A DNA stretch of 64,000 nt, from sequence record NC_094493.1; one strand, given 5' to 3'. The position numbers and the translations under genes were made by a program. Position 1 is the first letter of the stretch. Every line of letters starts with the position of its first letter. Below the pieces are notes generated by a model. That model made no database searches. It was not told the DNA's origin and saw only the letters and a program-made list of their open reading frames with translations. Source of the stretch: a phage. Positions 35,895 through 61,769 of this stretch are shown piece after piece.

Positions 35895-35923
35895 AGGTTG
35901 TAGGAAAAGTAAAGGAGATAATC

Positions 35924-37774: not shown

Positions 37775-37775
37775 A

Positions 37776-37804: not shown

Positions 37805-37847
37805 ACACAAATATGGTGCACAACATGACTAATAAGGATGCTATAAA

Positions 37848-38321: not shown

Positions 38322-38332
38322 GTAAGGTTGTT

Positions 38333-38581
38333 GTGAGGGCCAGTGAGTGGGCAGCCAAGAACAGTTCACTCAACTGGTTCGACTTTCTTTGGTGCAGGGT
38401 GCTCAAGAATTTCAAAGGGGAAAATTTTGAATCGCTAAATCTTGCAGATATGGCGTATTTCCTGAAGCTCTGTGAGTATCTTGATATCGAAGAATTCCTA
38501 GATACCGTCCAAAACAGGGAAATGGAGCGGGAGCAGAAGGCTGCCGCAGCTGCTGCGAAAGCTAAGCGCAGGAGAGGATAA
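38333..38581 (+). CDS. Downstream ORF of the chaperone, probably expressed as a frameshift extension
   Basis: Same frame as the -1 frame after the slippery site; GTG at 38333 is the track's nominal start. Confidence 0.4.
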   Translation: MRASEWAAKNSSLNWFDFLWCRVLKNFKGENFESLNLADMAYFLKLCEYLDIEEFLDTVQNREMEREQKAAAAAAKAKRRRG

Positions 38582-45444: not shown

Positions 45445-48042
45445 ATGCGTATTCAACATAACATTGATAACGTATTTCAGATGATTGAGGGGCACAGGAA
45501 GTGCCTCGATAACAACACAGGTATTACCAACACCCCTACACAAAATAAGCTAGTAAACCCTGATGGTCTTATAGCTGCAGGGTGGGCAGGTAATAAGATA
45601 AATAATGATTGGGCAATGCATGAGTCCCAAGCTGTGTTGATTCTGGGATACATTGAAGCATACAGGGCATCGAAAAGCGATTTCTATCTGGATAGGGCAA
45701 AAGATGCTTGGGAAGCTTACAATAGCCATCTTCTGGGCGCATATGCAGTAGAAAGTAAAATGCAAAGATTGTCCCACTACCCTCTATCCACAGATGGGGT
45801 TCCATCACATGGTGGGTTTAAAGATGTGGTGGTGTCTTTTACCAACGGTAGAGGAAAAATCCCAGCTGGATCTCCGACATGGGGGGAATACCTGGACAAG
45901 GCATTCCAAGCGTATAAAGGTGTGTTAGGAAGAAACACTGTAGACTCTGATGTTTACGGTGGCACAGATGCTAACCCAGATTGGACAACATCCGGATTAA
46001 ATTGGTGGGTTGAGTGGTACATAGCATGGGATGGTAACCGCTATTGGGCTAACGGGAGCATAGCCGACAGTGGGCATACGTCTATAGAGTTCGGCACAAT
46101 CCAATTACAAGATAAGGGTGTTACAGGAAGCCACAAGGTGACCTATTGTGTAAGATTACCTCAAGAGCAGGGTGGATCGGTGATACCTGCTGGATCCCCT
46201 GTAATTGTAAATCCTATAAACGTGGTTGCAGATAATCAGGCCCCAGAGTTGGACGGGGAAGAAATGTGGTGTGACGCTTGTTATCAACTCTACACCTTGA
46301 CAGGTGAGGAAAAGTATCACACCGCATTTAAACAGTCTTACAACAAGTTGCTTAATTTCAGTGATATAAACGCCTACGACAAACTGTTTAGGAAGACCAC
46401 GTTGATTAAGGCACCGTTTACAGATGGTACTTGTCTTGTTGCAGGAACAGTTCCTGTCATGAGCAGGGACAGTGACGGATATATCAATTTTAGAATGAAC
46501 GCACGCCAGCCTTGCGAAATAATTCAAAAAGGGACTACATACAAAATAGGCAGAGATGCTGAAATTGTTATGAATTTCGGAGGAGAAGGGGTTCTGTTCC
46601 AGCCACATTTCATCCTTAATGATGGCAACAATAACAAAAAACAGTACAGGATAGGTGTTCCTTTTGGAGGGGCAGAGGTAACAGAAATAGTTGCCAAGGT
46701 TACTGATTTCGTAGAGGTGGTTGGTAAAGACGGTAATCCATATCTCTTACCTAAAGAGGAAAACATTGTCGTAAGTGGTGGCGCTAGTGTTAGTATGCAG
46801 TATGATACCGACATTTACAACCACTCTGACAACTTCACCCGTTGTAATATAGTAAGAGGTAAAGTAACTTTCAATTTTGGAAGAGAGATTTCTTTAAACT
46901 CAGTAACTTATCGATCAGATGATGAGATGGTAAGGGTCAAATTTCTTGACAAAGACAGGTGGTTATGGTATGCTGATCTATATGCCACTAATGGACAATG
47001 GATAACAGAAACTCTTACTCTAGGAGATTTCAAACTAGATCCGACACAACCTCATCACACTGAAGAAGAGATTAAACCTTTCTTTGCTAATCCTAAGGGG
47101 CTCACCTCTGTAGATTTCAGCCTAAGCGACAGACAGATAGGTAATGGCTTGTTTGATCTGTACTGCGTAAACACGCTGCCGCAGTTCTATATTGCAGATA
47201 GGGATGCTTATCTAATATGGTTTAGCGTATGGATGGCAAGCAAGACAGAATCAACCGCCAAGGTTGGTGATTGCTATGTCAGAAACTACAAGCAAGGCGC
47301 ATACAGGCACACACCGGGTGTGTTCCCTGCCGGAAAGGTGATAGATAAGGAAAACTATCTCTTAGAGGAAAAGCCAAATTGGCCCTACCCTGGCATGCAA
47401 TACCCAGCAGTATACTGCATGGGTGCAGAAAACATAGATCGCCATAGATTGTCAAATACAATAGGCTTTCTGTATGACGCTCAAGTCTGGTATAATAATA
47501 CATTTAAGACAGAGGGTCCAGTTGCCTCACGTTATGTATGGCAGAGAGGTAATGAAGGGTTGACTGGTTGGTGGGAGATGGTAGATAACTCTAAGCTCCA
47601 GTCAAGATCTTTTGTTGCTGCGTGCCGCACAATCTATGAGCTCAAGAAACATAAAGAACCTGTTGATGAAAGATTATTCCTGTTCTGCCAGAAATGGGCA
47701 TGGTTCCTCAACAGATTCCAGTCATCTCATTCAGGAAATCTGCCTACAGACTTTAACACCTCTGGGGGATATTCTTATCAAGACAGAGGGGACAGGATGT
47801 GGGTGGTAGGTGAATGGCTTGCAGGTTGCTGCTGGCTAGGTCTGTGCGGGTATTCAGAGACAATACCCCAAATAGATATTGTTGTAGAAGCCTGTGTGAA
47901 GCTGCTGCAAAAGCACCACTTCATTAATGGGGATAATGTTTTAAACGGCTGCTGGGCAGTTTCTGATCCGGTTGGCTATCACTCTGGCGAAATCCTTCGC
48001 GGTCTGGGACTTTATGCTCAATACCGTGGATTGTACCTTTAA
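45445..48042 (+). CDS. Large tail/baseplate protein (865 aa), possible tailspike
   Basis: Large ORF within the tail module; no motif recognised. Confidence 0.35.
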   Translation: MRIQHNIDNVFQMIEGHRKCLDNNTGITNTPTQNKLVNPDGLIAAGWAGNKINNDWAMHESQAVLILGYIEAYRASKSDFYLDRAKDAWEAYNSHLLGAYAVESKMQRLSHYPLSTDGVPSHGGFKDVVVSFTNGRGKIPAGSPTWGEYLDKAFQAYKGVLGRNTVDSDVYGGTDANPDWTTSGLNWWVEWYIAWDGNRYWANGSIADSGHTSIEFGTIQLQDKGVTGSHKVTYCVRLPQEQGGSVIPAGSPVIVNPINVVADNQAPELDGEEMWCDACYQLYTLTGEEKYHTAFKQSYNKLLNFSDINAYDKLFRKTTLIKAPFTDGTCLVAGTVPVMSRDSDGYINFRMNARQPCEIIQKGTTYKIGRDAEIVMNFGGEGVLFQPHFILNDGNNNKKQYRIGVPFGGAEVTEIVAKVTDFVEVVGKDGNPYLLPKEENIVVSGGASVSMQYDTDIYNHSDNFTRCNIVRGKVTFNFGREISLNSVTYRSDDEMVRVKFLDKDRWLWYADLYATNGQWITETLTLGDFKLDPTQPHHTEEEIKPFFANPKGLTSVDFSLSDRQIGNGLFDLYCVNTLPQFYIADRDAYLIWFSVWMASKTESTAKVGDCYVRNYKQGAYRHTPGVFPAGKVIDKENYLLEEKPNWPYPGMQYPAVYCMGAENIDRHRLSNTIGFLYDAQVWYNNTFKTEGPVASRYVWQRGNEGLTGWWEMVDNSKLQSRSFVAACRTIYELKKHKEPVDERLFLFCQKWAWFLNRFQSSHSGNLPTDFNTSGGYSYQDRGDRMWVVGEWLAGCCWLGLCGYSETIPQIDIVVEACVKLLQKHHFINGDNVLNGCWAVSDPVGYHSGEILRGLGLYAQYRGLYL

Positions 48043-48077
48043 CATAGGGGGCTGTTTGCCCCCTTTCAGGAGAAAGA

Positions 48078-51000
48078 ATGGCTGATATTAAAGTTGTCAG
48101 AATTGAATCTCTTCCTGCCACTACCGCAGTGACAGAGGATGATTACCTGGTTGTTCAACAACCAGACCTGACTCGTCGTGTAAAAATTGGCGATGTTGTC
48201 CATGTGGATGGGACTGTTTCTCATGTAATCTCCTTTAAGGAAGGTGGTAAGTTAAACGGCCCAATGGATTTTGCCTACTTCGAAGAGGAAGACCTCTACC
48301 TGCGTTGGAAAGGCGAATTTCCACACACTGTTCCTGCACTATCTTCACCGTACTCCGATGGTGGGATTACTGACGCTGCATGGATGGTATATACTGACCC
48401 GTCCCTAAGGGAGGAGCTGGAATCTACCATTGGCGCATCTATGATCATGACAGCCGAAGGGCAGTCTGTCCAGGATGTAATGGATGTTACTGTTCAGACA
48501 GCTAACGATGCTAAAGCCCTTGCACAGCGTGTAGATTTTGGTACAGTGCACACTGTAGGTGATGTTATCCACCTTGATAACTTTGTTGGCCCTGCAGTTA
48601 TTGAAGAGGGAAGAACCACCAACTACCCTTCTGTAGCAGCTGGTGAAAAATTTCTGAACGGTGTGGTATCTCGTCGTGATACTACAACTGTTGATGGCAT
48701 TTTCCGTGGCGCTACCTCCGGAGCCATGTATACCATCGCAGTAACCAACGGTGTAGCGACAACAAAAAGAATAGCACTTCGTGATGAATTTAAACGCCTA
48801 GAGGCAAACAACCCAACAAGAACAGTTATCCGTGCTGGAGATGATTTAAACACGGCAGGGTACTTGCAGCTTGACGCAACAGGCCGTTGGGGTATGTGGA
48901 ACCAACAAACAGCCTCGTGGCAACCTCTTGCTATAGAGCAAGGCGGCACAGGGGCTAGAGATGCCGCTGGAGTCCGTATCAATATCGGTGCTTTCTATAA
49001 GCAACGTGCAGCCCTTGAGCCAAATTTCAATATCAATAACTTGACTGGTAATCAGGATGGTGTATACTACCAGCCGATGACTGCTTATGCAACTGAGGCA
49101 AATGGTTACCCTGCAGGTTCTGGTGCTGGTCACCTGATTGTTTGGCAGAACAATGCTAACGGCGGTACAGGTTGTCGTCAGGAATACTATCCATTCTCTA
49201 ACGTAGATGTTTGGTATTTAAGAACCTATCAGGCCAACACAAATCAGTGGACTGCATGGCAGCCGATGGTCAGACCTCGTAACGATGATACCTTTAGAGC
49301 GCACATCGGTCTCGGGTCTAGAAACTCCCCTACCTTTGGGCACCTTTACCTGTCTCAAAGTTCTGCTGATGTTAAGTCAGCATCAGGTATTGTTAACGGG
49401 GACAAATACAGCGCTGACGGTGTCCTTGAGCATGGATATAGGATCTACTCTGAGGTAAGAAACGACAATAAGGCTTGGTTGACAATCCACCTGCACAAAG
49501 GTGCAAAAGGATCTGAAACTCATAGATATTTAGGTTTCCGCGAAGATGGCGTGTTAGACTGCCCTAAATACATGCAGGTTGGGGATCTTACTGGTCAGCT
49601 GACAAACTGGGGTCTTGGAGAATGGATCCGTAGTTCAGGGGCAGAAAGAGGCTTCTGGGGGTCCAAGAAAGCCGCCAAGATGGTTGTCTGGGATGGTGGG
49701 ATGGACGAATCCGGTAACGGCACTCTGGAATGGGGTGTTTATAACAACCGGAAGGCCAAGTGGGAACCTTTACCTCAAGCCGCAGGTGGTACTGGGGCTA
49801 CAACTTTAGCAGATGCTCAGAATCTGTTCAAAGTTCCTATAGCAGCAGGTGTGAAAGACTTCTTAACACTGCCAAGAACCGCAGGGATGGAAGATGGGAA
49901 ATACTACCCGATCATCGTTAGAACAGATCCGTATTACGCCCCTTCGACAGGTACAGATATTACCATAGTCACCAGGTCTTCATCTGGAAATGACCCTATG
50001 AACTGTGCCACCCTGCAGTGTCACTATAGAACTGGCGGCTGGACGGACAGGGGAGACTCTTTCTACGGGGTAGTAAATTTCTACCAGAATGAAAAAGCAC
50101 TTCTTGGGATGGTTGCTCCAGCAAGGGGTAAACAAGAGTATGTTGCTTTCTATGCAGAGGCTCGTGCTTTCCCTGTCAGCATATACGCAAGTAGAAATGT
50201 TGTCGAAGTGTTTACCAGAGAGCAAGATTACCAGGTTGGGGCTGTAACAGCCAATCAGGATGGGGTTAAGTTCGTTGCACCTCTTCAGTCAGCAGATTTG
50301 AATCTCGCTATTCTTGGAGATAACAACACCAATACCAGACCTATTGTTGACTTCAAAGGTACTTCAGGGTTCTACACTGGCGGCGGCACACAGTGGCACT
50401 ATATAGGCACTGCTGAACGCTATGCTGTGATGAGCAAAATGAATATGCCTAAAGTCGAGCTATGGGCAGACGGTATTGACTACCTTTGCCCTGGTAGTCA
50501 GACCACTCGAAAAGCACTGTTCTCTAATGCAGGGTTCCAGGCTGCGTCGGAAGGAACAGAGGATCTGATCAACAACACCTTTACCTCTAAATGTGGTAAT
50601 GGTGCAAGACTGCAAGGACAGGCAGAGTTCAGATCTACTCCAGAAGCTGCTCAAGTTATTGTTCGTGATGTTGTAGGCACAGCTCATAGATTCTACAACT
50701 TCAACAAAGATGGCACTTTCTCAGCTCCGGGCGGTTTTGTATGCCACACGGGTGCAGACTGGAACAACCAGTTTGGGCCTAACAACCCGTCAAAAATAAT
50801 AGCTGGTAATGTTAACGGCCCACAAGATACCATGGTTGTAGGCGGGTTATCTGTAGGATTCTCGGGAAACTACGCTTTCCAGATTGCTGGCAGACAAAGT
50901 AACTTATACACCAGGTCTATAGAAGGTGGTAATCACCATCCCTGGAATAAGGCTATGCAACACAGGGGTCAAGGTCTTGGTTCTTCAGACCTTAACACCT

Positions 51001-51896
51001 ATCACGGATTGTGGGAAGGTATTTACCATCAGCCTGCAAATAATGATGCAACATATGATCGTCATTATCCCGTAAATGAGGCCGGAACACTTATTGTGTT
51101 GCAAAATAACGCCAATAACGGTAATGGGTGTGTTCAAGAATATATTACCTACCATGGCGATAGATTTACACGTTATGGGAATATGGTGAAACAGGTCTTC
51201 ACTTGGGGCCCGTGGACCCAAACAGGTGGTAATGGTGTTAGCTTCAGATATGGAGGAACAACTCCCGAAGGGGAAATACCGACCTCAGAGTTAAAGGTAT
51301 ATATTTCTGGAAGCCATGTTACTAATAACGGTGGCAACATGCCTGCGAATAGCGCTCATATGCACTATTGGGGCAACGGCAGCACAGGGGATCGCCCAAA
51401 CGTGTTAGAGTTTAAGGTTCTTGACGAGTCTCAAGCAAATTGGGTATGGCATTGCGGTACCTTGCCAGATAAATCAAGATATTTTGCTGTCAACGGTACG
51501 GTAGAATGTACTACTGTTAGCCAAAGTTCCGATAGGGACCTGAAGGATAACATAGAGGTCATACCTAACGCTCTGGAAGCAATTAGAAAAATGAAAGGTT
51601 ATACCTACACCTTGAAAGAGAATGGTATGCCTTATGCAGGCGTGATTGCTCAAGAGGTTATGGAAGCATTGCCAGAGGCAGTAGGATCTTTCGTAAAAAG
51701 GAAGGAAATAGAAGGTCCTACTCAAGACGGTATTCCTCTGATGACCGAGGAAAGGTTCTATAACGTTGACTACGCAGCTGTAACAGGCTTGCTTGTCCAG
51801 GTTTGCAGGGAACAGGACGATAAAATAACCGCCCTTGAGGAGCAGGTTAAAAAATTGACAGAGGTTGTTACTGGATTGCAAGAGAAACTGAAGTAA
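48078..51896 (+). CDS. Long tail fibre with C-terminal intramolecular chaperone (peptidase S74-like) domain
   Basis: 1272 aa; C-terminal SSDRDLKDNIEV...GYTYTLKENG matches the autoproteolytic chaperone signature. Confidence 0.65.
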   Translation: MADIKVVRIESLPATTAVTEDDYLVVQQPDLTRRVKIGDVVHVDGTVSHVISFKEGGKLNGPMDFAYFEEEDLYLRWKGEFPHTVPALSSPYSDGGITDAAWMVYTDPSLREELESTIGASMIMTAEGQSVQDVMDVTVQTANDAKALAQRVDFGTVHTVGDVIHLDNFVGPAVIEEGRTTNYPSVAAGEKFLNGVVSRRDTTTVDGIFRGATSGAMYTIAVTNGVATTKRIALRDEFKRLEANNPTRTVIRAGDDLNTAGYLQLDATGRWGMWNQQTASWQPLAIEQGGTGARDAAGVRINIGAFYKQRAALEPNFNINNLTGNQDGVYYQPMTAYATEANGYPAGSGAGHLIVWQNNANGGTGCRQEYYPFSNVDVWYLRTYQANTNQWTAWQPMVRPRNDDTFRAHIGLGSRNSPTFGHLYLSQSSADVKSASGIVNGDKYSADGVLEHGYRIYSEVRNDNKAWLTIHLHKGAKGSETHRYLGFREDGVLDCPKYMQVGDLTGQLTNWGLGEWIRSSGAERGFWGSKKAAKMVVWDGGMDESGNGTLEWGVYNNRKAKWEPLPQAAGGTGATTLADAQNLFKVPIAAGVKDFLTLPRTAGMEDGKYYPIIVRTDPYYAPSTGTDITIVTRSSSGNDPMNCATLQCHYRTGGWTDRGDSFYGVVNFYQNEKALLGMVAPARGKQEYVAFYAEARAFPVSIYASRNVVEVFTREQDYQVGAVTANQDGVKFVAPLQSADLNLAILGDNNTNTRPIVDFKGTSGFYTGGGTQWHYIGTAERYAVMSKMNMPKVELWADGIDYLCPGSQTTRKALFSNAGFQAASEGTEDLINNTFTSKCGNGARLQGQAEFRSTPEAAQVIVRDVVGTAHRFYNFNKDGTFSAPGGFVCHTGADWNNQFGPNNPSKIIAGNVNGPQDTMVVGGLSVGFSGNYAFQIAGRQSNLYTRSIEGGNHHPWNKAMQHRGQGLGSSDLNTYHGLWEGIYHQPANNDATYDRHYPVNEAGTLIVLQNNANNGNGCVQEYITYHGDRFTRYGNMVKQVFTWGPWTQTGGNGVSFRYGGTTPEGEIPTSELKVYISGSHVTNNGGNMPANSAHMHYWGNGSTGDRPNVLEFKVLDESQANWVWHCGTLPDKSRYFAVNGTVECTTVSQSSDRDLKDNIEVIPNALEAIRKMKGYTYTLKENGMPYAGVIAQEVMEALPEAVGSFVKRKEIEGPTQDGIPLMTEERFYNVDYAAVTGLLVQVCREQDDKITALEEQVKKLTEVVTGLQEKLK

Positions 51897-51902
51897 CTGT
51901 TT

Positions 51903-51929
51903 TGCCCTCGCTTCGGCGGGGGCTTTTTG
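51903..51929 (+). terminator. Rho-independent terminator
   Basis: GCCCTCGC-TTCG-GCGGGGGC followed by TTTTTG. Confidence 0.6.
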
Positions 51930-51935
51930 TTTGTA

Positions 51936-51964
51936 TTGCGTATTAACTCAAAATCTGGTAAAAT
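51936..51964 (+). promoter_or_regulatory. Sigma70-type promoter (TTGCGT, 17 bp, TAAAAT with upstream TG)
   Basis: Read directly from sequence. Confidence 0.45.
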
Positions 51965-51995
51965 AACTATCATGATTGTTTAACCTGGAGGCACA

Positions 51996-52586
51996 ATGTT
52001 TTTATGGGAAAGGCCTAGATACCTTCCAGATATTAGATTGGAGCTGCTGGCAGATATTGTTACGTTTAAAAGTCCGTTTACAGGTAAAACGCAAAAAGTA
52101 ACCTATGCCACACCTAACTGGAAAGGCACTTTGACGGTTTCCAATATCAGCGAGTCACAGTTGCTAGAGCTTAAGAGCTTTGTTGATCAGGTGTATAAAG
52201 ATGGAAACATCTTTCTTATTAAAACTTACGGTCACTCAGTTACAGCTAATGAGCCAATCGCCCTTGGGCCTACTGGTAACGACGATTTTTTGAAGACGGT
52301 TGGGTGGGAGCCAAACAGAGACATAGCCAGAGCTGGGGATAAAATATCTGTCAATGATGAATTGAAAGTGGTAACAGCTCCAGTGCGTAGCGATGGTGTT
52401 GGGTCTGCTGTTATAAGCATATCTCCAAGACTTAGAAAACCTATTGCCGCAGGGGACACTATGAAGATAATAACTCAATCCCCGAAGGGTAGGTTTCATA
52501 TCAGAGATATTTATAAAATTAAGCAAAAAGTCGATGCTATGCAAAAAGGTGATAATATAGTTATCAACTTCTTTGAGGATTTCTAA
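51996..52586 (+). CDS. Hypothetical tail protein (196 aa)
   Basis: ORF with GGAGG RBS. Confidence 0.3.
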   Translation: MFLWERPRYLPDIRLELLADIVTFKSPFTGKTQKVTYATPNWKGTLTVSNISESQLLELKSFVDQVYKDGNIFLIKTYGHSVTANEPIALGPTGNDDFLKTVGWEPNRDIARAGDKISVNDELKVVTAPVRSDGVGSAVISISPRLRKPIAAGDTMKIITQSPKGRFHIRDIYKIKQKVDAMQKGDNIVINFFEDF

Positions 52587-52587
52587 G

Positions 52588-53139
52588 ATGATCAGAGCGC
52601 CATTAGATAATTTATTTCTTGAAAAGCTGGAGCTTGATGGTGTTGAGATCTTAATTGCTGCAAAGCTGGAGCTACCGACAGGAACTGTCAGGGTGTGCTC
52701 AGGCACTGGTGTTGTAGTAATTGAGGGGCAACATTTTATAGGGATAGGTGGATCAGCAACGTTAACTGCTGTGTCTGAGAAAGATGCCACCAACTTCGGA
52801 TCTGTGGTAGCGACATTGAACGGGTTTGATCCTAAGTATGTGGGTGATCTTCTGAAGACGGAGTATTCCGGTTGTCGTGCCACGTTGTACATTACCGCTA
52901 TGGAGAATGGTCTGCCTGTCACAACTAATGGCTTGTTTGACGGCCTTATAACAGATATGGCTATTCAGACAGGGGAGAATAGTGCTTTGTCCATATCCAT
53001 CTCTTCCATCTTCAATAGTTGGTTAAGAGGTTTTCCTTATCGGTACACGGAGGAAAGCCACAGCTCAAGAAACGATAATGACAGATTTTTTAAATATGTG
53101 GATCAGGTGGCGAGCCGCCCGATCATTTGGGAGGTTTAA
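52588..53139 (+). CDS. Hypothetical tail protein (183 aa)
   Basis: Start moved to ATG after GAGGA RBS. Confidence 0.3.
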   Translation: MIRAPLDNLFLEKLELDGVEILIAAKLELPTGTVRVCSGTGVVVIEGQHFIGIGGSATLTAVSEKDATNFGSVVATLNGFDPKYVGDLLKTEYSGCRATLYITAMENGLPVTTNGLFDGLITDMAIQTGENSALSISISSIFNSWLRGFPYRYTEESHSSRNDNDRFFKYVDQVASRPIIWEV

Positions 53140-53564
53140 TGAGCACACACCCTCGTTTAGTGGATTGGCAAGAAAGATTGTGGAAAGTGTTTGACGAAGA
53201 GGCCACCATACCTTTTGAATGGGGATTCCACGATTGTTGCACCTTTGCGGCTAAGTGTGTTGATGCCCAATACGGAACAGATTTTCTTTCCAACTTCGAA
53301 GGAACGTATAAAACAGAGTTGGAAAGCAAAAGATGGTGCATGCTTCGTTTCAAAACTACACACCTGCCTACTATTTTTGATCTCTTTATGACTCGGCTGG
53401 ATACTCCTAAACAGGTTCAGCGTGGAGATATTGTCATTTTCGAAGGTCTGAACGGGCTCACCGCTGGTGTGTTCTGGAACAACCAGATTTGGGCGAAAGG
53501 TGATAAAGGGGTCTTTATGTTCGACATGAAAGATTCTATCGTTGTTGATGTCTGGAGGTATTAA
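53139..53564 (+). CDS. Putative tail assembly protein with NlpC/P60-like Cys-His core (lambda K-like)
   Basis: Start moved to ATG after GGGAGG RBS; FHDCCTF Cys motif; directly precedes the J-like gene. Confidence 0.4.
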   Translation: MSTHPRLVDWQERLWKVFDEEATIPFEWGFHDCCTFAAKCVDAQYGTDFLSNFEGTYKTELESKRWCMLRFKTTHLPTIFDLFMTRLDTPKQVQRGDIVIFEGLNGLTAGVFWNNQIWAKGDKGVFMFDMKDSIVVDVWRY

Positions 53565-56500
53565 TGCCAATTGCAATGATTGATAACATCGTTGCTTCTG
53601 CAAGATCTTCAAGTTATGACTGGAACGCATCCAAGGCAGCTCTGGCTGACAGCCTGAACACTGTTACCACCAGAACTCTGGATAAGATTTTTGAGGGCAA
53701 CAAATCTTACAGAAGTCAGCAAGATAGACAAAAGCTTCTCAGATCTTCTGCTGCACCTTGCTCTGTAGTGTATGGTAAGACACGTACGTCTGGATTGCTT
53801 GCGTTTTTGGAGCAGGACAGAGACAGAACTCTCCACTGTGCTATTGTTCTTGCCAACCACCCTCTGGAAGATATAGAAGATATACTTATCGACGGTAATC
53901 CTATTTCCTCGTATGGAGATCTGGTATCGTGGGAGCTACATAACGACAGAAAAACATCTGATCCTTTCATGGGTACACACTGCCCATCATGGTCACCAGA
54001 CATGATAGGTAGAGGGATCAGTTGGCTACGTGCCAGCTTCAGGTTTGACCCTAATAAGTTTCCTTTTGGGTTGCCAAACGTTACACTCGTTAAGGTTGGT
54101 AAAAAATGCTATGATCCTCGTATCAGTAAAGAGGTGTACACCAATAACGCAGCCTTGGTGATCCTGGACTATTTAAGAACGTACCTTAAATGTCCTGACG
54201 AAACCATCAACTGGGAGTCCTTTAAGGAGGCTGCCAACATATGCGACGAGGCGGTAAAAAACGCTGACGGAACCAGTGAGCGACGTTACACCATTAACGG
54301 TGAGTTTGACATGGATGAGGCCCCAGCAAGTATTATGGCAGAAATGCTGAAAGCTTGCGGTGCAGACCTTAGTTATGTTGCTGGTAAGTATGGTTTGCTG
54401 GTTGGTGCATACTATGGTCCGGCAACAATGACATTGAGTGAGGACTGTGTCTGTGGTGAGGTTAAGATCTATCCGGAAGCCTCATTTGACAAAAGATCTA
54501 ACACAATAACTGGCAGATTCACTAGTCCGACCAAAGGGTATTCTGAAACAGATTTTCCATCAGTGTTTGTCCCAGAGTGGATAGAGAAGGATGGAGAAAG
54601 AAAGATAATCGATATAGACTATCGCTTTGTTACCAGCCCTTATCAAGCTCAGCGTGTTTCTGCAATATTCTTAAGACGTGCCAGAGCTGGCAGGATTATT
54701 GAAGTCACCTGCAATATGCGAGGTTTTAAATTTAAGCCTGGTCGTTACGTCACAATGGACCTTCCAAGCATTGGTATAGTGGGCCAAGAAATGAGGGTTC
54801 TCGAATGGGAGTTCACTAAAAAGGGTGGTGTCAAGGTAAAACTTCGTCAAGATGCTAAAGAGTGGAATGATGCCACCGGGCAACTTCCGGATTCTGGCGA
54901 TGTAGATATTCCGATATCCCCATCCGGTGTAGCTCAACCGCAAAACTTCAGATACTCCGTCCTCCAAGCTGGGGAAATAACTCACGGTGTTCTGGCTTGG
55001 GACAACGTTGGGACTTACGCTCAAAATATTGTGCAGGTAAGAAAGAACGGAGAGATTGTTTGGACAGCACAGACAGTTGAGCAGTTTGTCCGAGTAGAAG
55101 GCTTGACCAAAGGGTCATACACAGCAACCGTGGTTGCAACATCTTATAAAGGTGGTGTATCTCCAGAAGCGTACTGCGAGTTTAACATTCAGGCACCTGA
55201 AGCTCCGGTTTCTGTAGAGGTTAAGCAGGGATACTTTGCTATCACCTTGATTCCGCATAGTAGGGATTTAGCAAGCGTAAGCACCCAGTATGACTTTTGG
55301 ACATCTGGTATGACAAGGTTGCCAGACACCAGTGATGCAACCGTTACTTCAAAAGCCACCCGTATGGGTGTTGGTTCAACTTGGACATCTGAAGGTCTCC
55401 AGAACGATAAGGTTTATTATTGGTATATTCGAACCACAAACGCTTTTGGTAGCTCTCAGTTTGTAGAATGCGCTGCACGCTGCTACACCTCTATTGAGGA
55501 TTTGATGCCTCAGATAGATGCTGAATTCAAAAAGACAGAAACTTATAAAGAGTTGATGAGCACTTTGGATTCCTCTATTGAAGAGGTTGAAAATCGTGTC
55601 ACAGAACTTAACAGGTACATGGATGGTAGGGTAGATGAGGCATTCCAGCAACTTGGAGACAGAATAGGTGCGGTAGTTACAGAGACAACTCAGAAGTTTG
55701 AGGATGTCAATGGCAATATCACAGCGCTGGATAGGAAACTTGTTGCTGCACAGAACAAGTTCACCAACGATCTGAACACTGAAAGTGGAAGATTGGCATC
55801 TCTGATTGAGACAACCAATAAAGCAACCACTGATCTTCTGAACAAAAAGACAGAGGCTTTAGATGAGAAATTGGTTGCCGCCAAAGGTGAACTGGTAGAG
55901 CAGATAGAGGGAGTTGAGAGCGGGTATTTAGCCGGAGATAAAACTCTAGATGGTAAGATCAATACTCAGAGAACAGAACTTGACGCAAGCATCTTGAGCA
56001 CCAACCAAGCCACTGTGGATCTTTTGAACAGGACATCTGAAACTCTGGATCAAAAGATTAGTCAGACAAACGCGACGGTATCTAAAAACTATACCACCCT
56101 TGACGGAAAGATAACTACCGCAAAAACTGACCTCAACACCTTGATTGCCAATACCAACAAGGCCACCACTGACCTGCTGAATCAGAAAACATCTGCACTG
56201 TCAGAGCAGATAACTTCTGCACGTGGGGAGATTTCTACCAACAAGCAAGCGATTGATGCTTTGGATGGAAAACTGACCTCCACAAAAACAGCGCTGGATG
56301 CTACAATTTCCGATACCAACAAAGCCACTGTGGACCTTATCAACGGCACAGCGTCAGCTATTCGTCAAGAACTTGCTGTTGCTAAGCAGGAGATCATGGA
56401 TGATGTTGGGGATGTGTCTGAGATCAGGGCTGCAGTAGCTACAACATCTAAGGCTGTAACCGACTTAGAGGGTAAAGTAAATGCTCAATGGGGCACAAAA

Positions 56501-57403
56501 ATACAGGTAGACTCCGCAGGGAATAAATATGTTGCAGGTATTCAGTTGGGGATGGAAGGGTCTGGAGGCCAAGTTCAATCCTACTTCATGGTTAGTGCAA
56601 ACAATTTTGCGGTATACAACCCAGGAAATGGAACAGCAACCCTTGCTTTCGCAATCAAGAACAACCAAGCGTTCTTGAAAGACGCTTTTATAGAGAATGG
56701 CACGATCTCCTCTGCCAAGATCGCACAAGAAATCTCGTCAAACAACTACGATGGCAACGGGTACCATAAATACGGTTGGTATATTAACAAGAACGGGCAC
56801 GCCCAATTTATGGATGTGTGGGTGAAAGGCAACATCAACGCTAGTTCTGGTAACTTCACAGGGGCAGTTAACGCCACTAGTGGTACCTTCCGTGGGGATG
56901 TTTATGCCAATAATGGTAGCTTTAGGGGCACCATAGATGCAACCGGAGGTACCTTCCGTGGTCGTGTAGAAGCTTCTGTTATCCGTGCTAACCAGTTCGA
57001 AGGTGCAATTGTTGCACACAGGACTTACGGGGATTGTGCTCCAGTATATAACTCCCAGCAAAGGGTTTGCCGTTGGAGGTGGAGATACGTAGATAACGTT
57101 TCAGGTCAGGGTAAGAACGTAACATTCTTCTTTAAACTGAATGGTACTCTTGCCAGCTCCCAACTGAATGCATGGATAGCTGGTCATCAGATCCTTGCTG
57201 GCAAGAAGTATTTTAACGACAACAACGGCATGTGTGCGGTAGGGATAACAGGTCTGGGTGAACAAACTATAGACATTGTTATCGAGATTTACACACCGTG
57301 GTCAACGTCAAGCGTGACAGGTGTCACAATCTCCTGTCCTACTGTGATAGTAAGTCGTTCAAACTCTAGCTTCCAGGGACCTTGGAACGAGTCTCACGAC
57401 TAA
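53564..57403 (+). CDS. Lambda J-like central tail fibre / tip attachment protein
   Basis: VKQGYFAITLIPH, YYWYIRTTNAFGSSQFVE, KYVAGIQLGMEG and SYFMVSANNFAVYNPGNG parallel lambda J blocks as recalled; coiled-coil repeats in the distal half. Confidence 0.6.
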   Translation: MPIAMIDNIVASARSSSYDWNASKAALADSLNTVTTRTLDKIFEGNKSYRSQQDRQKLLRSSAAPCSVVYGKTRTSGLLAFLEQDRDRTLHCAIVLANHPLEDIEDILIDGNPISSYGDLVSWELHNDRKTSDPFMGTHCPSWSPDMIGRGISWLRASFRFDPNKFPFGLPNVTLVKVGKKCYDPRISKEVYTNNAALVILDYLRTYLKCPDETINWESFKEAANICDEAVKNADGTSERRYTINGEFDMDEAPASIMAEMLKACGADLSYVAGKYGLLVGAYYGPATMTLSEDCVCGEVKIYPEASFDKRSNTITGRFTSPTKGYSETDFPSVFVPEWIEKDGERKIIDIDYRFVTSPYQAQRVSAIFLRRARAGRIIEVTCNMRGFKFKPGRYVTMDLPSIGIVGQEMRVLEWEFTKKGGVKVKLRQDAKEWNDATGQLPDSGDVDIPISPSGVAQPQNFRYSVLQAGEITHGVLAWDNVGTYAQNIVQVRKNGEIVWTAQTVEQFVRVEGLTKGSYTATVVATSYKGGVSPEAYCEFNIQAPEAPVSVEVKQGYFAITLIPHSRDLASVSTQYDFWTSGMTRLPDTSDATVTSKATRMGVGSTWTSEGLQNDKVYYWYIRTTNAFGSSQFVECAARCYTSIEDLMPQIDAEFKKTETYKELMSTLDSSIEEVENRVTELNRYMDGRVDEAFQQLGDRIGAVVTETTQKFEDVNGNITALDRKLVAAQNKFTNDLNTESGRLASLIETTNKATTDLLNKKTEALDEKLVAAKGELVEQIEGVESGYLAGDKTLDGKINTQRTELDASILSTNQATVDLLNRTSETLDQKISQTNATVSKNYTTLDGKITTAKTDLNTLIANTNKATTDLLNQKTSALSEQITSARGEISTNKQAIDALDGKLTSTKTALDATISDTNKATVDLINGTASAIRQELAVAKQEIMDDVGDVSEIRAAVATTSKAVTDLEGKVNAQWGTKIQVDSAGNKYVAGIQLGMEGSGGQVQSYFMVSANNFAVYNPGNGTATLAFAIKNNQAFLKDAFIENGTISSAKIAQEISSNNYDGNGYHKYGWYINKNGHAQFMDVWVKGNINASSGNFTGAVNATSGTFRGDVYANNGSFRGTIDATGGTFRGRVEASVIRANQFEGAIVAHRTYGDCAPVYNSQQRVCRWRWRYVDNVSGQGKNVTFFFKLNGTLASSQLNAWIAGHQILAGKKYFNDNNGMCAVGITGLGEQTIDIVIEIYTPWSTSSVTGVTISCPTVIVSRSNSSFQGPWNESHD

Positions 57404-57411
57404 CCTTTAAA

Positions 57412-57437
57412 GCCCCGCTTCGGCGGGGTTTATTTTT
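57412..57437 (+). terminator. Rho-independent terminator
   Basis: GCCCCGC-TTCG-GCGGGGT followed by TTATTTTT. Confidence 0.6.
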
Positions 57438-57446
57438 ATGCTCAGA

Positions 57447-57475
57447 TTGACTATTGTTACAAAATTTGGTAAAAT
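57447..57475 (+). promoter_or_regulatory. Sigma70-type promoter (TTGACT, 17 bp, TAAAAT with upstream TG)
   Basis: Read directly from sequence. Confidence 0.5.
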
Positions 57476-57508
57476 ACCTTGTAGAGATTTTCATACCGGA
57501 GGAGTGAC

Positions 57509-58999
57509 GTGGCTAAGTATGGATTGACAGAGGCTGGTTTCGTTATACCAACCCTAAATGACCTAATCGTTGAAACTAAGCAAAGCCTGATCCGTGCTTT
57601 TGGCGAAAACTTCAACGTACAGAGTAACTCCGTTGCAGATAAGCTGACCACTATCTTCAACGAGCGAGAGTATCAACTTATTCTTATGGCAGCATCTGTA
57701 TACGCATCACAGACGCTGTATGGGGCAGAAGGTATTTACCTAGATGAACTTCTTGGAAGACAGGGTATTTACCGAAGAGGCCGTTCTAAATCATCAGGTA
57801 CCTGCCAGTTGACGATCAACACAACTGTGCCGTACAATATGATTTACGATTCCAAAACTTATACGCTGGATAGTGGCAACTTTGTTCTTAGCAATGATGT
57901 GCAAGTGGCAGGGAATCTTATTGCTCACAGAATAAATGCTCCAGACCTAAGGATTGGTAAATACAACTTTCAAATTACCAACCAGACAGATGGAAGTATC
58001 AAAACAAAAAGTCTGGTTTTAACAGATAAGGCTCTGGACTCTTCTGATCTGCCAAGCTTTTACGGAGAGATTAAGCAATTCATTGTAGATAATACAACTC
58101 TGTTAAACGACGATTTGATTCAGATCGATATGTTGACAGGAACGTTGTGGATAGGATACAATTCGAATCTTGATCAAGTTGGACTTAATAGTAGGGTAGA
58201 TTTTAGAGTATCCCCGATTGTAGGGGAAAGAACTATCACCCTAGATGTTATCGCCAACGAGGCTGGTGAGCTGTCAAGAGAGGCAGAAACCGTGACAACA
58301 ATGTCACCTACTCCCAGTGGATTTATCAAGCTTACCAACCGAGAAAGATTCAATGAGGGCAGGGATGTTGAGAAAGACTCAGAGTATCGCTTAAGAGCTT
58401 CCAGCACAAAACAGTTAACATCTAAGGCTACCCGTCCTGCAATCCTTAGCGCTGTAAGCGAGGTGAAAGGTGTTGAGAAAGTGAGAGTGTTCTCTAACAA
58501 TACCGATAAAACTGATGCTAAAGGTATACCTCCTTACAAGTTCCAAGTGGTTGTGTTTGGTGGTGCAACGGAGGACATTTGCCAAGCGCTTTACCAAACT
58601 ATCGCCTGTACGAACAGGACTTATGGTAATATTTTCTACGATGTCACTACATCTGACGGTCAAACTGAAAGAATTTATTACTCCAAGGCAAATACCTACC
58701 GCCTGGATGTAAGAATTACCTACTCTGGTGCTGCGCTTTCCACAACCGAAAAAGATGCCATTGTAGAAGCTCTTTTACAGGTTGTTAACGGACTGGATGT
58801 TGCAGATACGTTGTACAATATCCAATTGGTTGGTGCTGCATCCGCTGCTGTGTCAATAGGCAGATTTAATAGACTGGTAATTCAAGTTAAACCTGTGGGG
58901 GCTTCTGATGAAGCTTACACTACAAACGATATTGTTGCAAACATGACCGAGGTGTTTGACCTCGATGAAAGTAATATAACTTTCCAACAAACTATTTAA
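57509..58999 (+). CDS. Putative baseplate protein (496 aa)
   Basis: GTG start with GGAGGAG RBS; position in tail module. Confidence 0.35.
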   Translation: MAKYGLTEAGFVIPTLNDLIVETKQSLIRAFGENFNVQSNSVADKLTTIFNEREYQLILMAASVYASQTLYGAEGIYLDELLGRQGIYRRGRSKSSGTCQLTINTTVPYNMIYDSKTYTLDSGNFVLSNDVQVAGNLIAHRINAPDLRIGKYNFQITNQTDGSIKTKSLVLTDKALDSSDLPSFYGEIKQFIVDNTTLLNDDLIQIDMLTGTLWIGYNSNLDQVGLNSRVDFRVSPIVGERTITLDVIANEAGELSREAETVTTMSPTPSGFIKLTNRERFNEGRDVEKDSEYRLRASSTKQLTSKATRPAILSAVSEVKGVEKVRVFSNNTDKTDAKGIPPYKFQVVVFGGATEDICQALYQTIACTNRTYGNIFYDVTTSDGQTERIYYSKANTYRLDVRITYSGAALSTTEKDAIVEALLQVVNGLDVADTLYNIQLVGAASAAVSIGRFNRLVIQVKPVGASDEAYTTNDIVANMTEVFDLDESNITFQQTI

Positions 59000-59010: not shown

Positions 59011-59697
59011 ATGGCAGAGATTAAGTCGGATGTTAACCACATCCACACTCTGCCAGATTTTGTTCAGGGGGGTCTTGACTACCTTCCTGGAGATTTTCTG
59101 GCTGAGAAGGTTAATTTGGTCACATTCTTAACCGTGTACCTTAAAAGGTTGGAGGATGTTGATAAGATGCTGGTAGGTTTGGCTGAAGGAAGATTGCTTA
59201 ACAATGCCAGCGGAAGATACCTTGATGAAGTTGGTAATCAACTTGGTATTCTTAGGAATGGACTTTCAGATGCTGATTTTCGTGCCACACTAATTATTCA
59301 GCAGGCTGCAGCATCAAGGGGCGGGACTCGCGAAGATGTCATCTCCACCTTGCGACAATTGTTCGGAAGAGACAATTTCGATACGTGGAAAGGAGACAAC
59401 TTCAGGTTTGACATAAATATTAGAAAAACTTGCTTTGACATATTGCAGTCCATCGATCAGATCTTAGATATGCTACCATTACCTTGTCATTTGCGTCTTA
59501 CAGAATCGCAAGGGCAAGCTTTTGGTTTTGAAGGGGACTCTACAGCTCTTGGCTTCGGATCAGTGTGGGAAGAAAACCAATTCGGAGTTGGTGGGCTGGC
59601 TACTTTGCTATATGTTCCTGACGTAAGACCTGATTGGGACACCACAACCATTTATTGTGAAAGTATTACAGTAAACGCAACTAGACAGGAGGGTTAA
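59011..59697 (+). CDS. Putative baseplate protein (228 aa)
   Basis: ORF coupled to neighbours. Confidence 0.3.
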   Translation: MAEIKSDVNHIHTLPDFVQGGLDYLPGDFLAEKVNLVTFLTVYLKRLEDVDKMLVGLAEGRLLNNASGRYLDEVGNQLGILRNGLSDADFRATLIIQQAAASRGGTREDVISTLRQLFGRDNFDTWKGDNFRFDINIRKTCFDILQSIDQILDMLPLPCHLRLTESQGQAFGFEGDSTALGFGSVWEENQFGVGGLATLLYVPDVRPDWDTTTIYCESITVNATRQEG

Positions 59698-61769
59698 TGG
59701 CAACAGCTGTTTTTAAACCTTACCGTGATTACTCTACAATGGCTGCACAGTTTCATTACCGAACAGTTCAGGATACTGCCGTTCCTGGTAGGGATTATAA
59801 TCATGCTGAGGGCGATGTAACTATCCCAATTGGGGCAACCAGTATTGAGATCCCCGTGGAAATTGTTGACAAATTACCCAACAGGTTACCAAGAAGCTTC
59901 TTTATGGAGTTTTCATCAAAATCTCAAGGAGTGATGATTGGGACACAAAGGGCGAAATGTACAATAGTTTCAGATGAGAATCTTGACAGGATAGCTTGGG
60001 ATACTGTTGAGGAGAGAATGTTTCACCCAAGATATTGGGTTACAACCACTCAGCAGACTGAAAGTACCTGTATTGTTGCAGATAACAACTGTTGTATTAA
60101 CCGTTTAGTGTCAAGAACATATGGAGGTATGGCCGGGTGCATTTGGGAAACAGTTGATAAGTATGACCATTTCGGTATTGGGTTTGATGATCACTATGAG
60201 ATGAGAAACACCAAGCTTTGGTTCAGAATGTCAATAACCAATGCCAGCAACTTCTCCACCCCTGAAAAGATGATTATGACTGTAGACCTTGTTGATGGCA
60301 CAATCATCTATGTTCCTTTAGCTCAATATGCTGCCAGCATCTCAGAGGATAAGAATGTTGCAGAGATTCATATTGATTTCGAGGACTGCGTCGGGATGGA
60401 TCAGAACAACAACATGATGGGTGTTGATCCTCGCCAGGTGAGAAGGATTTTAATACCGCTTATGCCTAAAGATTGGGTAAGTAATAGCACAGACCCGAGA
60501 ACGGAAAATGTAGAGTGTGAGTTGCGCCTAGATCTGCTTCAGCCAGACACGGGCTGGAAAATGATGCAACTTAACAATATTCAGGTTAAAGAGCACGACG
60601 TTGGGATCTGCACCGCATATGACGATATGTGGAACGTATCTCCTTTAAGGGTGTTGAACAATATCAAGCGTCTGGGCTATACCGGAACCATAAACCATTA
60701 TGTTGGTATGAGTCATTATTATGACTACACATGGTCAGGAACCCAATGGTCTATAAACAGAACAGGAGCGCTAAACGCTGCAGCTTATAAATGGCATGAT
60801 GATTTTATGTACAATGCCAAACGACATAACTTCGACGTTATGCAGTCTGTAAGTTTTGAGCTTTACAGCGATGCCTGTCCGTTGGAATGGACCCAAAGAG
60901 ACTGGAACGATAACTACGCTAAAACAGGGTATACACCTTGTAGCTACCTCCTGTCTCCAACCATTGAAGAGGGTATGAATTTCCTTACTGCAGTATTTAA
61001 GAATTTTGCATCAGCCGCTATGAGAAACAACCTGCCAGTGATTATGCAGGTTGGTGAACCATGGTGGTGGTACAATACCGATACTCGTAGACCTTGTATT
61101 TATGATTACCCTACAAAGCAGGCGTTTTATGATGAGACAGGTGAGTATGCATTAGATATTGGGACTATTGACGATCCTAAAACTGGCGGTGTTTACGACA
61201 AGTATGTAGCATTTTGTCGTGGTAAGCTTGGCGCTCGTATTGCGGCTATTTCAAAGGCAATAAAGGCACACGCTGCATCAGCTCAGATGACAGCTCTGCT
61301 GTTTTTCCCAACCATTATGGAAACCGAGCTTACGCAAAAGCTGAACCTTGCTGACCAATATAAAAAAGAAGCAGGTGCTCTTGATTTCTTCTGCACCGAG
61401 TGCTACGATTGGGTAATGCAGGGGGGTATTGAAAAGGCAAAAGAGTCTGTAAACATACCTATCGTTAAGTTAGGTTGGCAACCGTCTGAAATACAATACC
61501 TTGCAGGGTTCGTTCCTAGTAAAGAGCTTGCTCCGGTATATGGCTACGACCCAACTAGGAATTACCAAGAATTTTTATGGAGATGTATTTGCGGAAACAT
61601 GGCAACTATAGAGTATAGATACCCTGAGGTAAAACAGTATGTGTGGGCATACCCGCAAGTAATGTCTGACAGCATCACTGTTACCGCTAGAGATTCTACC
61701 GTGCTTCATATGGGGCAGGTTGCTCTGAAAGGGTATGTAGAGGATGTTGTCCCGCCAGACTTCTCATAA
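59697..61769 (+). CDS. Hypothetical tail protein (690 aa)
   Basis: Large ORF upstream of the tail-fibre gene. Confidence 0.3.
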   Translation: MATAVFKPYRDYSTMAAQFHYRTVQDTAVPGRDYNHAEGDVTIPIGATSIEIPVEIVDKLPNRLPRSFFMEFSSKSQGVMIGTQRAKCTIVSDENLDRIAWDTVEERMFHPRYWVTTTQQTESTCIVADNNCCINRLVSRTYGGMAGCIWETVDKYDHFGIGFDDHYEMRNTKLWFRMSITNASNFSTPEKMIMTVDLVDGTIIYVPLAQYAASISEDKNVAEIHIDFEDCVGMDQNNNMMGVDPRQVRRILIPLMPKDWVSNSTDPRTENVECELRLDLLQPDTGWKMMQLNNIQVKEHDVGICTAYDDMWNVSPLRVLNNIKRLGYTGTINHYVGMSHYYDYTWSGTQWSINRTGALNAAAYKWHDDFMYNAKRHNFDVMQSVSFELYSDACPLEWTQRDWNDNYAKTGYTPCSYLLSPTIEEGMNFLTAVFKNFASAAMRNNLPVIMQVGEPWWWYNTDTRRPCIYDYPTKQAFYDETGEYALDIGTIDDPKTGGVYDKYVAFCRGKLGARIAAISKAIKAHAASAQMTALLFFPTIMETELTQKLNLADQYKKEAGALDFFCTECYDWVMQGGIEKAKESVNIPIVKLGWQPSEIQYLAGFVPSKELAPVYGYDPTRNYQEFLWRCICGNMATIEYRYPEVKQYVWAYPQVMSDSITVTARDSTVLHMGQVALKGYVEDVVPPDFS

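Follow-up and report, generated by a model that had tools for sequence, protein, structure and literature searches.

Although distantly related in plan, siphovirus tail tips and myovirus baseplates are treated as alternative endings of the phage tail. The phage genome deposited as NC_094493.1, of which a stretch of 64,000 nucleotides (hereafter, the window) was analysed, raises the question of whether one phage encodes both. The initial annotation of the window placed a lambda J-like tip protein, and a lambda K-like protein encoded just before it, at 53139-57403, in a tail region that also held sheath and tube candidates, a gpV-like spike with a His-rich tip and a gp25/W-like protein. It offered two readings: a mosaic of siphovirus-type tip genes and myovirus baseplate genes, or a misreading of one of the two sets. 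The analysis described here supported the mosaic at the gene level. The coordinates of the two open reading frames (ORFs) were exact (53139-53564, 141 amino acids (aa), and 53564-57403, 1279 aa), and both genes belong to the feature, but its start lies two genes earlier. The segment 51996-57403 is a four-gene siphovirus tail-tip cassette that encodes, in this order, a Dit-like protein, a gpL-like protein, a DUF6950 (K-like) protein and a J-like protein.

Results

The J-like protein

Profile, pairwise and structural comparisons all agreed with the description of the 1279-aa protein as J-like. It matched the Pfam families Phage_Tail_Tip (1.2e-38, 132.4 bits, cut-off 22) and Ig_J_second (1.4e-30, 105.9 bits, cut-off 27), scored slightly below the cut-off of Ig_J (24.7 bits, cut-off 29), and matched PHROG 31, "central tail fiber J", at 3.4e-163. 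The phmmer comparison with lambda J (PDB 8iyk; 1.5e-28) aligned residues 497-678 with J 666-844 and residues 957-1116 with J 844-991, and BLASTP returned two matches to lambda J (3e-18 and 2e-17). The N-terminal third is without pairwise similarity to lambda J. An AlphaFold2 (AF2) model of this part, built on 28 homologues, is confident for residues 63-434 (predicted local distance difference test (pLDDT) mostly 85-97). Foldseek matched these residues with T5 pb3 (1.1e-22, template modelling (TM) score 0.66-0.68), lambda J (1.8e-17), proteins of T1, Chi and JBD30, and chain 6tba_8A of the virion of the Rhodobacter capsulatus gene transfer agent (RcGTA; 439 residues, 5.2e-15), while myovirus hubs of the Mu gp44 type scored only about 1e-8. 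On this model, the N-terminus of the J-like protein is a siphovirus baseplate-hub fold. A hub-like HHpred match had already been reported for the homologue in Escherichia phage rV5 by the authors of its genome study (PMC3606486).

Judged by its sequence, the 1279-aa protein is not, strictly speaking, a lambda J orthologue. Its score against the NCBIfam model lambda_TipJ was 153.9 bits, against a curated cut-off of 1950, so that the orthology test with lambda J proper was negative, and BLASTP found no similarity between its C-terminal domain and the receptor-binding domain of lambda J. Nor is the gene located directly after the tape-measure and Dit genes, as in siphoviruses; the tape-measure gene is about 11 kb upstream, and the genes for the myovirus hub, spike, sheath initiator and fibres come in between.

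The gpL-like and Dit-like proteins

The two genes that open the cassette encode a Dit-like protein that matches PHROG 1302, "distal tail protein" (2.2e-50), and a gpL-like protein that matches PHROG 2048, "tail protein" (1.5e-67). Neither has a Pfam match above threshold, and neither single-sequence searches nor shallow profiles made from close siphovirus homologues only found anything in the PDB. A deeper family was collected around the gpL-like protein, the homologue of rV5 gp39 (627 cluster representatives), and a 74-sequence alignment of it was used as a profile. This gp39 profile matched the N-terminus of pb3 (residues 15/37-179) from both DT57C (1.2e-7) and T5 (2.1e-5), and PF09931, "baseplate hub N-terminal attachment domain", was matched by 4 of the 74 members. 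The hub of lambda is split, with gpL forming hub domain (HD) I and gpJ forming HD II-IV (PMC13243795). Because its family matches pb3 HD I, the domain carried by gpL in lambda, the 183-aa protein is the gpL equivalent, and together with the N-terminus of the J-like protein it makes up one complete hub, as one pb3 does. Members of the Dit-like family matched DUF2460 below threshold in 2 of 13 cases (best E 0.053). The GenBank notes of rV5 state that gp40, gp39, gp38 and gp37, the homologues of the four cassette proteins, resemble consecutive tail proteins of the Yersinia siphovirus PY54.

The DUF6950 protein

The 141-aa protein belongs to Pfam DUF6950 (PF22262; 2.5e-33, 115.5 bits, cut-off 27; residues 6-140). 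Its likeness to lambda K was upheld for position and NlpC/P60 fold; a JAB domain and a conserved catalytic His are missing, and sequence similarity to K did not reach significance. The AF2 model, built on 51 homologues, has a pLDDT of 95.5, and its Foldseek matches include MepS (2.6e-5, TM about 0.6), LytE (4.6e-3) and RipD (3.6e-3); in a library of viral structures it first matched other phage DUF6950 proteins and then NlpC/P60 proteins. The NlpC/P60-like fold is confirmed by the model at the level of the fold only. By sequence, the protein stays below the threshold of Pfam NLPC_P60, BLASTP gave no match to lambda K, a single-sequence search of the PDB returned nothing, and the single PDB match of the family profile, CwlO, was non-significant (E about 1). 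Alignment of the 51-sequence profile with lambda K by hhalign was weak (10.6% probability), the DC and QRGDV motifs aligning within K 60-129, in the NlpC/P60 half of K. No match to a JAB/MPN domain was found, and there is no room for one because DUF6950 spans residues 6-140 of a 141-aa protein. The pair D32-C33 is invariant in the 51 sequences and opens a helix in the model. The same sequences have no conserved His, and the position of the catalytic His of CwlO is occupied by Thr or another residue. Peptidase activity is doubtful because the family lacks a conserved His. The 141-aa protein resembles lambda K in position and fold and is not a gpK orthologue.

In a sister rV5-like lineage (L090:10001-10426 and L092:10001-10426), the DUF6950 protein is 58-61% identical to that of the window; of its neighbours in the cassette, the Dit-like and gpL-like proteins are 83-87% identical and J is 73% identical. 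Either this protein evolved much faster between the lineages or the one gene was replaced.

The phage and its contractile-tail genes

A megablast search with positions 48000-58000 returned 122 phage records, the best being Escherichia phage V5/rV5 with 96.8% identity over the whole query, and on this identity the window is assigned to a member of the genus Vequintavirus. Vequintavirus is a group of myoviruses with genomes of 130-140 kb. All tail genes of the window are on the + strand and in the order of rV5, and their products are 96-100% identical to their counterparts in rV5 and in the BASEL phage AlexBoehm. Contraction of the rV5 tail has been seen by electron microscopy (EM) (PMC3606486).

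The contractile set identified through Pfam and PHROG comprises the sheath (DUF3383), tube (KPP10_Orf10), chaperone, tape measure, tube initiator, plug, hub, spike, sheath initiator and Baseplate_J wedge. The spike matched the model of the phage spike protein N-terminal domain (1.4e-9) and its C-terminus, ...KGHTHSCPDGETSGPH, has the HxH motif; the 238-aa protein is the gp25-like sheath initiator (phrog_120; PF10934 on a homologue). The tube protein shows a single F-to-L difference over its full translation. The profile searches, which could have reassigned the sheath, spike and wedge proteins, upheld all three; the earlier calls of a tube protein, a His-rich spike tip and a gp25-like protein stood as well. 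A misreading of one of the two sets is refuted by the Pfam, PHROG and Foldseek searches.

Distribution and origin of the cassette

A tblastn search with the N-terminus of the J-like protein showed a sharply restricted distribution. Identity was at least 95% in 116 records and, among the matches listed, all of these were Vequintavirus-type genomes of 130-143 kb or partial records. Another 349 records were below 60%, the best (57.6%) being siphoviruses of the genera Nonagvirus and Seuratvirus (Queuovirinae), with ~60-kb genomes. The four homologues in Nonagvirus SE1 come directly after the tape-measure genes in the same order, with tblastn identities of 39% for the gpL-like protein (SE1 gp04), 46% for DUF6950, 45% for the matched part of the Dit-like protein, and 54% (aa 48-721) and 49% (aa 895-1095) for J. 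The layout in Vibrio phage K376 is that of SE1, behind the tape-measure gene, and about 80 IMG/VR loci have the same gene order on contigs of approximately 10-80 kb, mostly 20-60 kb.

Myovirus relatives were found through the wedge protein, namely SSE121 (Seunavirus, 60% identity) and nieznany (Phapecoctavirus, 33% identity). Both keep the whole tail and baseplate gene order, and in neither did tblastn find a match to any cassette gene within 16 kb on either side of the wedge gene; in SSE121 a fibre gene is directly followed by the wedge gene. A distant rV5-like lineage, represented by two metagenomic contigs and one E. coli assembly contig, has baseplate proteins 80-92% identical to those of the window and carries the cassette at the same site. 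With sister genera lacking the cassette at this site and a genuine myovirus gene set, the gene mosaic is real. The simplest account of the pattern of presence and absence is one acquisition in the ancestor of both rV5-like lineages, after the split from Seunavirus.

Some of the records found in these comparisons are unusual. The Dit-like gene in the record of Salmonella phage SE1 (L006:7264-7855) is annotated as 124 aa, and the homology runs on into the overlapping ORF 7466-7855, so that a frameshift or a sequencing error in the record is suggested. The Salmonella homologue P0043 lies in a decayed prophage remnant with a truncated J, and "Escherichia phage DCP80", an oddly classified record, gave a match at 22% identity.

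Selection and lineage-specific changes

The ratio of non-synonymous to synonymous polymorphism (pN/pS) was calculated for the window against four Vequintavirus genomes. Values for all four cassette genes were 0-0.06 (0.03-0.06 for the DUF6950 gene), and those of the wedge genes fell in the same range. Between the window and L011, J differs by 259 synonymous and 34 non-synonymous changes and the gp39 gene by 39 and 0. The cassette is under strong purifying selection.

Comparison with siphovirus homologues identified changes specific to the Vequintavirus cassette. Siphovirus J homologues start with an N-terminus rich in Ala, Gly and Ile, whose maximal 19-aa Kyte-Doolittle hydropathy is at least 1.6 in 60 of 73 cases and never below 1.44, while the Vequintavirus J N-terminus is polar (0.31) and shares the MP.A.I start with them. 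Identity between the two myovirus lineages is about the same in this polar segment (84%) as in the hub (83%). The Dit-like and gpL-like proteins have also changed. At a hub identity of about 60%, the Vequintavirus and siphovirus Dit proteins are 33% identical, compared with 46-54% in pairs of siphoviruses, and the gpL-like proteins are 39% identical, compared with 49-57%. DUF6950 is not more diverged at the same hub identity (47% vs 35-44%). Since the divergence of the Dit-like and gpL-like proteins exceeds that of the siphovirus pairs, the parts that would face the tail tube have changed most. In the distal part of J, the coiled coil measures 304 aa, against about 90-110 aa in siphovirus homologues (a gain of about 200 aa), and the difference in length between alleles of 1199, 1279 and 1381 aa resides wholly in it. 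At 17% identity, the C-terminal domain is unrelated to its counterpart in the closest siphoviruses. Within Vequintavirus-type records, identity over the C-terminal 183 aa reaches at least 80% in 116 of 116 and at least 90% in 114.

Two baseplate proteins outside the cassette have C-terminal extensions: the sheath initiator (44049-44765; last 33 codons, …TWTLAPDEREYSGVIATSNDEAIANQSGRAIDVN) and the second wedge protein (59011-59697; last ~19 codons, …RPDWDTTTIYCESITVNATRQEG). Both lineages with the cassette have kept these extensions, whereas SSE121 and nieznany lack them, and a complex formed by the cassette proteins might dock there, although the correlation is only two against two.

Borders and signals of the cassette

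The cassette is bracketed by two intergenic units, each with a UUCG-loop terminator and, after it, a promoter-like site containing TGGTAAAAT (Table 1). A unit of the same kind is located upstream of the wedge gene in SSE121. The right-hand site (57447-57475) is the best of the region, with 10 of 12 matches. The left-hand site (51956-51964) has 3 of 6 matches in its -35 region, so it is absent from the list of scanned promoters and was read from the sequence; it aligns with the right-hand site and with the one upstream of the SSE121 wedge gene. The cassette is predicted from these signals to be its own transcription unit.

Similar elements are found elsewhere in the tail cluster. The intergenic regions 35811-35923, 37775-37847, 51897-51995 and 57404-57508 share a promoter-like site ending in TGGTAAAAT or TGGTATCAT, and a GC-rich hairpin with a TTCG loop is present in three of these four and in the SSE121 region upstream of the wedge gene. 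The hairpin and promoter-like site appear to be the standard punctuation of this phage between late transcription units. A recent insertion with foreign base composition was considered and rejected: GC content and skew equal those of the flanks, and the signals at its borders are of a kind native to this phage.

Table 1. Genes, protein regions and predicted signals of the tail-tip cassette (window coordinates).
Feature	Position	Strand	Description	Basis or remark
Terminator-like hairpin	51904..51923	+	GCCCTCGC-TTCG-GCGGGGGC, then T-run	Closes the upstream fibre gene (rV5 gp41 homologue); left edge
Promoter-like extended -10	51956..51964	+	TGgTAAAAT	Consensus match only
Ribosome-binding site	51987-51991	+	GGAGG	Precedes ATG at 51996
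Dit-like gene	51996..52586	+	196 aa, rV5 gp40 homologue	PHROG 1302, synteny
gpL-equivalent gene	52588..53139	+	183 aa, rV5 gp39 homologue, hub domain I	Profile against pb3
DUF6950 gene	53139..53564	+	141 aa, rV5 gp38 homologue, lambda K position	Pfam, AF2/Foldseek
J-like gene	53564..57403	+	1279 aa, rV5 gp37 homologue	Pfam, PHROG, phmmer, BLASTP, AF2/Foldseek
J-like, hydrophilic N-terminus	53564-53749		aa 1-62	
J-like, hub domains II-IV	53750-54865		aa 63-434	
J-type Ig/FN3 domains	54950-55519		aa 463-652	
J-like, coiled coil	55520-56431		aa 653-956, four ~50-aa repeats	
J tail-tip beta-structure	56432-56968		aa 957-1135	
J-like, C-terminal domain	56969-57400		aa 1136-1279	
Terminator-like hairpin	57410..57431	+	AAGCCCCGC-TTCG-GCGGGGTTT, then T-run	Closes the cassette
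Promoter-like site	57447..57475	+	TTGACT, 17-nt spacer, TAAAAT, TG before	Wedge gene from 57509; right edge

Other features of the window

A 690-aa fibre protein encoded at 59697-61769 (+), the homologue of rV5 gp34, matched PF23845 (1.9e-79) and PF23844 (9.7e-13), which are the TIM-barrel and N-terminal domains of the non-contractile tail sheath protein family. These matches agree with a published link of this protein to phage N4 gp65 and to NGR/enterobacterial common antigen (ECA) recognition. In nieznany the homologue is encoded at another position, and a search of a 33-kb stretch of SSE121 found none.

Between the tube and tail-chaperone genes, where rV5 and AlexBoehm have a short intergenic spacer, the window has a 616-aa ORF (35924-37774, +) with four DUF723/treble-clef zinc-ribbon repeats and a C-terminal nuclease-like motif (…LAVEYNGVFWH…). 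It was found in 4 of 117 Vequintavirus-type records, two at about 96% identity and two partial at 85%, and looks like a free-standing insertion of the mobile endonuclease type. Identity to rV5 is 94.1% upstream of the insertion (sheath to tube, 33900-35870) and 98.8% downstream (37750-38400), a step that could reflect a co-conversion tract tied to the insertion or plain recombination. The 10-kb megablast query was also matched by 18 "Campylobacter phage" records (MG0656xx, host Campylobacter jejuni), at about 96.7% for those listed. These host labels look doubtful because the sequences are those of rV5-like coliphage genomes.

Discussion

A proposed domesticated host-binding fibre

We propose, with a probability of roughly 0.6, that the cassette is a domesticated accessory host-binding fibre of a contractile-tailed phage. 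Its source was probably a phage related to the Queuovirinae, with insertion between the lateral-fibre and wedge genes and retention from then on. The four genes would be transcribed as their own late unit, and three J chains, three gpL-like chains and a ring of the Dit-like protein could form a closed, empty mini tail tip. The DUF6950 protein may act as an assembly helper or ride along as a minor component, as lambda K does. The tip complex would no longer conduct DNA and would be mounted on the baseplate of the contractile tail, most likely at its periphery, where it could present a long trimeric fibre made of Ig domains, a coiled coil of ~300 aa, a beta-structured tip and the conserved 144-aa C-terminal domain. 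This fibre would bind a conserved host surface structure. The proposal builds on observed homology, collinearity, lineage-restricted presence, purifying selection and lineage-specific changes, and from these we infer the assembly, attachment site, copy number and ligand of the complex. Since no structure of a Vequintavirus baseplate exists, the step from a mosaic of genes to a mosaic physical tail is likewise one that we infer.

A number of observations weigh against this proposal. Although mass spectrometry (MS) reportedly detected gp37 in rV5 virions (PMC3606486), the data amount to 4 peptides, 5 spectra and 4.2% coverage, with one clean, fully tryptic peptide, and gp38-gp40 are not among the 19 virion proteins listed, in a data set so shallow that the sheath itself gave 15 spectra. 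None of five gp38-gp40 tryptic peptides sought was found in the MS supplement, where one gp37 peptide sought was also missing. Genome-wide receptor screens of rV5-like phages returned only the NGR glycan and the lipopolysaccharide (LPS) core (10.64898/2026.04.02.716166). The paper on phage phiTE states that no other vequintavirus has been studied structurally (PMC11972413), and the structures of phi92 come from a phage with no described cassette of this kind (PMC13450770). The identity of the Dit-like protein depends on a PHROG name, synteny and sub-threshold Pfam matches, with no sequence-profile match in the PDB, and the asymmetric divergence of the Dit-like and gpL-like proteins could reflect relaxed constraint instead of a new docking partner.

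Some of the same data were considered in the light of other explanations. It is very improbable that the cassette is expressed and yet is not a stable virion component, working instead as a scaffold in assembly, as a complex that is secreted or acts as a decoy, or as a module retained for some purpose other than adsorption. The rV5 proteome, with gp37 alone and weakly detected, and the genetic screens, which assign no receptor to the fibre, would fit; strong purifying selection along all 1279 aa, including the C-terminal domain, a fibre-like architecture whose distal domain is conserved, the one high-quality tryptic gp37 peptide from purified virions, and the maintenance of the cassette in two lineages that differ by 10-20% in their baseplate proteins argue against this reading. 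An active cell-wall endopeptidase on the fibre or baseplate, by which the cassette would add peptidoglycan cutting to binding, is an unlikely role for the DUF6950 protein. The best fold matches, MepS and LytE, are active endopeptidases, the invariant Asp-Cys occupies the place of a papain-like nucleophile at the start of a helix, the gene is under purifying selection within the genus, and the BASEL record of AlexBoehm reads "cell wall hydrolase protein". Set against this are the Thr or other residue in place of the catalytic His in a family of 51 members, the presence of the non-catalytic RipD among the fold matches, the NLPC_P60 score, the lack of detection of the protein in rV5 virions and the fact that a peripheral baseplate fibre would not reach the peptidoglycan. 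The probability that one gene set was misread, the tail being plainly contractile or plainly non-contractile, is negligible. Nothing was found in its favour, the weak points being a K-likeness undetectable by sequence and the absence of above-threshold Pfam matches for the Dit-like and gpL-like proteins; profile and fold searches independently supported each set, and the window is about 97% identical to a phage seen to be contractile by EM (PMC3606486).

The location of the complex could also be central. The Dit-like ring and the split hub would then form a single cap enclosing the iron-tipped spike, with the J-like protein as a true central fibre, and receptor binding would open or shed the cap and help to trigger contraction. 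All parts share the three-fold symmetry of the spike, the lumen of the siphovirus complex holds the trimeric C-terminus of the tape measure, for which the spike could substitute, a conserved polar segment has taken the place of the hydrophobic N-terminus seen in siphovirus J homologues, and 3 copies of gp37 per virion would agree with its low spectral count; the RefSeq name is already "central tail fiber J". We nevertheless regard this arrangement as improbable. In phi92, whose baseplate plan is common with the Vequintavirinae, inner pin domains of the wedges pack against the hub and spike (PMC13450770), which leaves little room. The spike of the cassette-free SSE121 keeps both the length and the C-terminal HxH motif, the last residues being different, and the approximately three-fold expansion of the coiled coil is expected for a fibre reaching sideways past a bulky baseplate. 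The MS data are too shallow for copy counting, and we know of no precedent for a cap over a membrane-piercing spike. Quite improbable is a hybrid virion in which a captured central tip senses the receptor and its opening or release gates contraction of the myovirus tail; to our knowledge, gating of this kind has not been described for any contractile injection system.

Significance of the cassette

The domesticated fibre remains the preferred reading, and its wider meaning depends on where the complex sits. One phage encodes both tail endings, the second of them complete, genus-specific, under selection and remodelled at the surfaces that would face the tube. If the complex is located on the virion, a whole tip assembly, beyond a fibre gene, could be grafted onto the other tail type as a host-recognition module, which, if true, would be useful for host-range engineering. 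Phages of the rV5 type rank among the coliphages isolated most frequently, and therapy cocktails include them. The raw observation is not new, since public records already label the cassette genes: "central tail fiber J", "distal tail protein" and "tail protein" in RefSeq, and "lateral tail fiber protein with fibronectin type III domain" and "cell wall hydrolase protein" in BASEL. In a full-text literature search, no publication was found that interprets the four genes as a tail-tip set captured from a siphovirus or that gives its location, and the BASEL paper describes the assignment of genes to fibres in the rV5-like group as unclear.

Comparison with known systems

The baseplates of phi92 (PMC13450770) and phiTE (PMC11972413) have a core of tube initiator, plug, hub, iron-binding spike, sheath initiator, heterotrimeric wedges and wedge-attached fibres, and the window encodes homologues of all these core parts. 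The papers on these two phages contain no description of a J-like, Dit-like or DUF6950 component.

The four genes themselves have parallels in other systems. In RcGTA, g12-g15 (Dit, hub, NlpC/P60 peptidase and megatron) have the same four-gene order and domain families and are remote in sequence; DUF2460 and PF09931 are presumably the families of g12 and g13, and a Mesorhizobium phage protein annotated as "megatron" was among the tblastn matches to the J N-terminus. The pb3 proteins of T5 and DT57C (PDB 7zhj, 7zqp, 8hqz) are the best structural match of the J-like N-terminus, and their first ~180 residues match the gp39 profile. Unlike the cassette, pb3 is a single chain that closes a DNA-conducting tube and is without a long J-type fibre.

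The lambda tail tip (gpM, gpL, gpK, gpI and gpJ; PDB 8iyk, 8k35, 8xcg) follows the same logic of Dit, split hub, NlpC/P60 protein and J. It differs in having gpI, for which the cassette has no gene. The counterpart of K in the window is without the JAB/MPN half and shows no significant sequence similarity to K, BLASTP found no similarity to lambda L and M, and the C-terminal domain of J is unrelated to the LamB-binding domain of lambda. The gpL-like protein of the window and seven aligned siphovirus homologues have no Cys in common that might bind an Fe-S cluster like that of lambda gpL.

The Queuovirinae tail tip (Nonagvirus SE1 gp05-gp02; Seuratvirus, JenP1-type) has the same four genes, in the same order and with the same Pfam content of J. 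Local alignments with the SE1-type loci L013 and L015 gave 60% identity for the J hub and 33% for the Dit-like protein. In the Queuovirinae the cassette follows the tape measure and ends a non-contractile tail, whereas in the window it is located among myovirus baseplate and fibre genes, its J has lost the hydrophobic N-terminus, gained about 200 aa of coiled coil and has a different C-terminal domain (17%), and its Dit-like and gpL-like proteins are unusually diverged.

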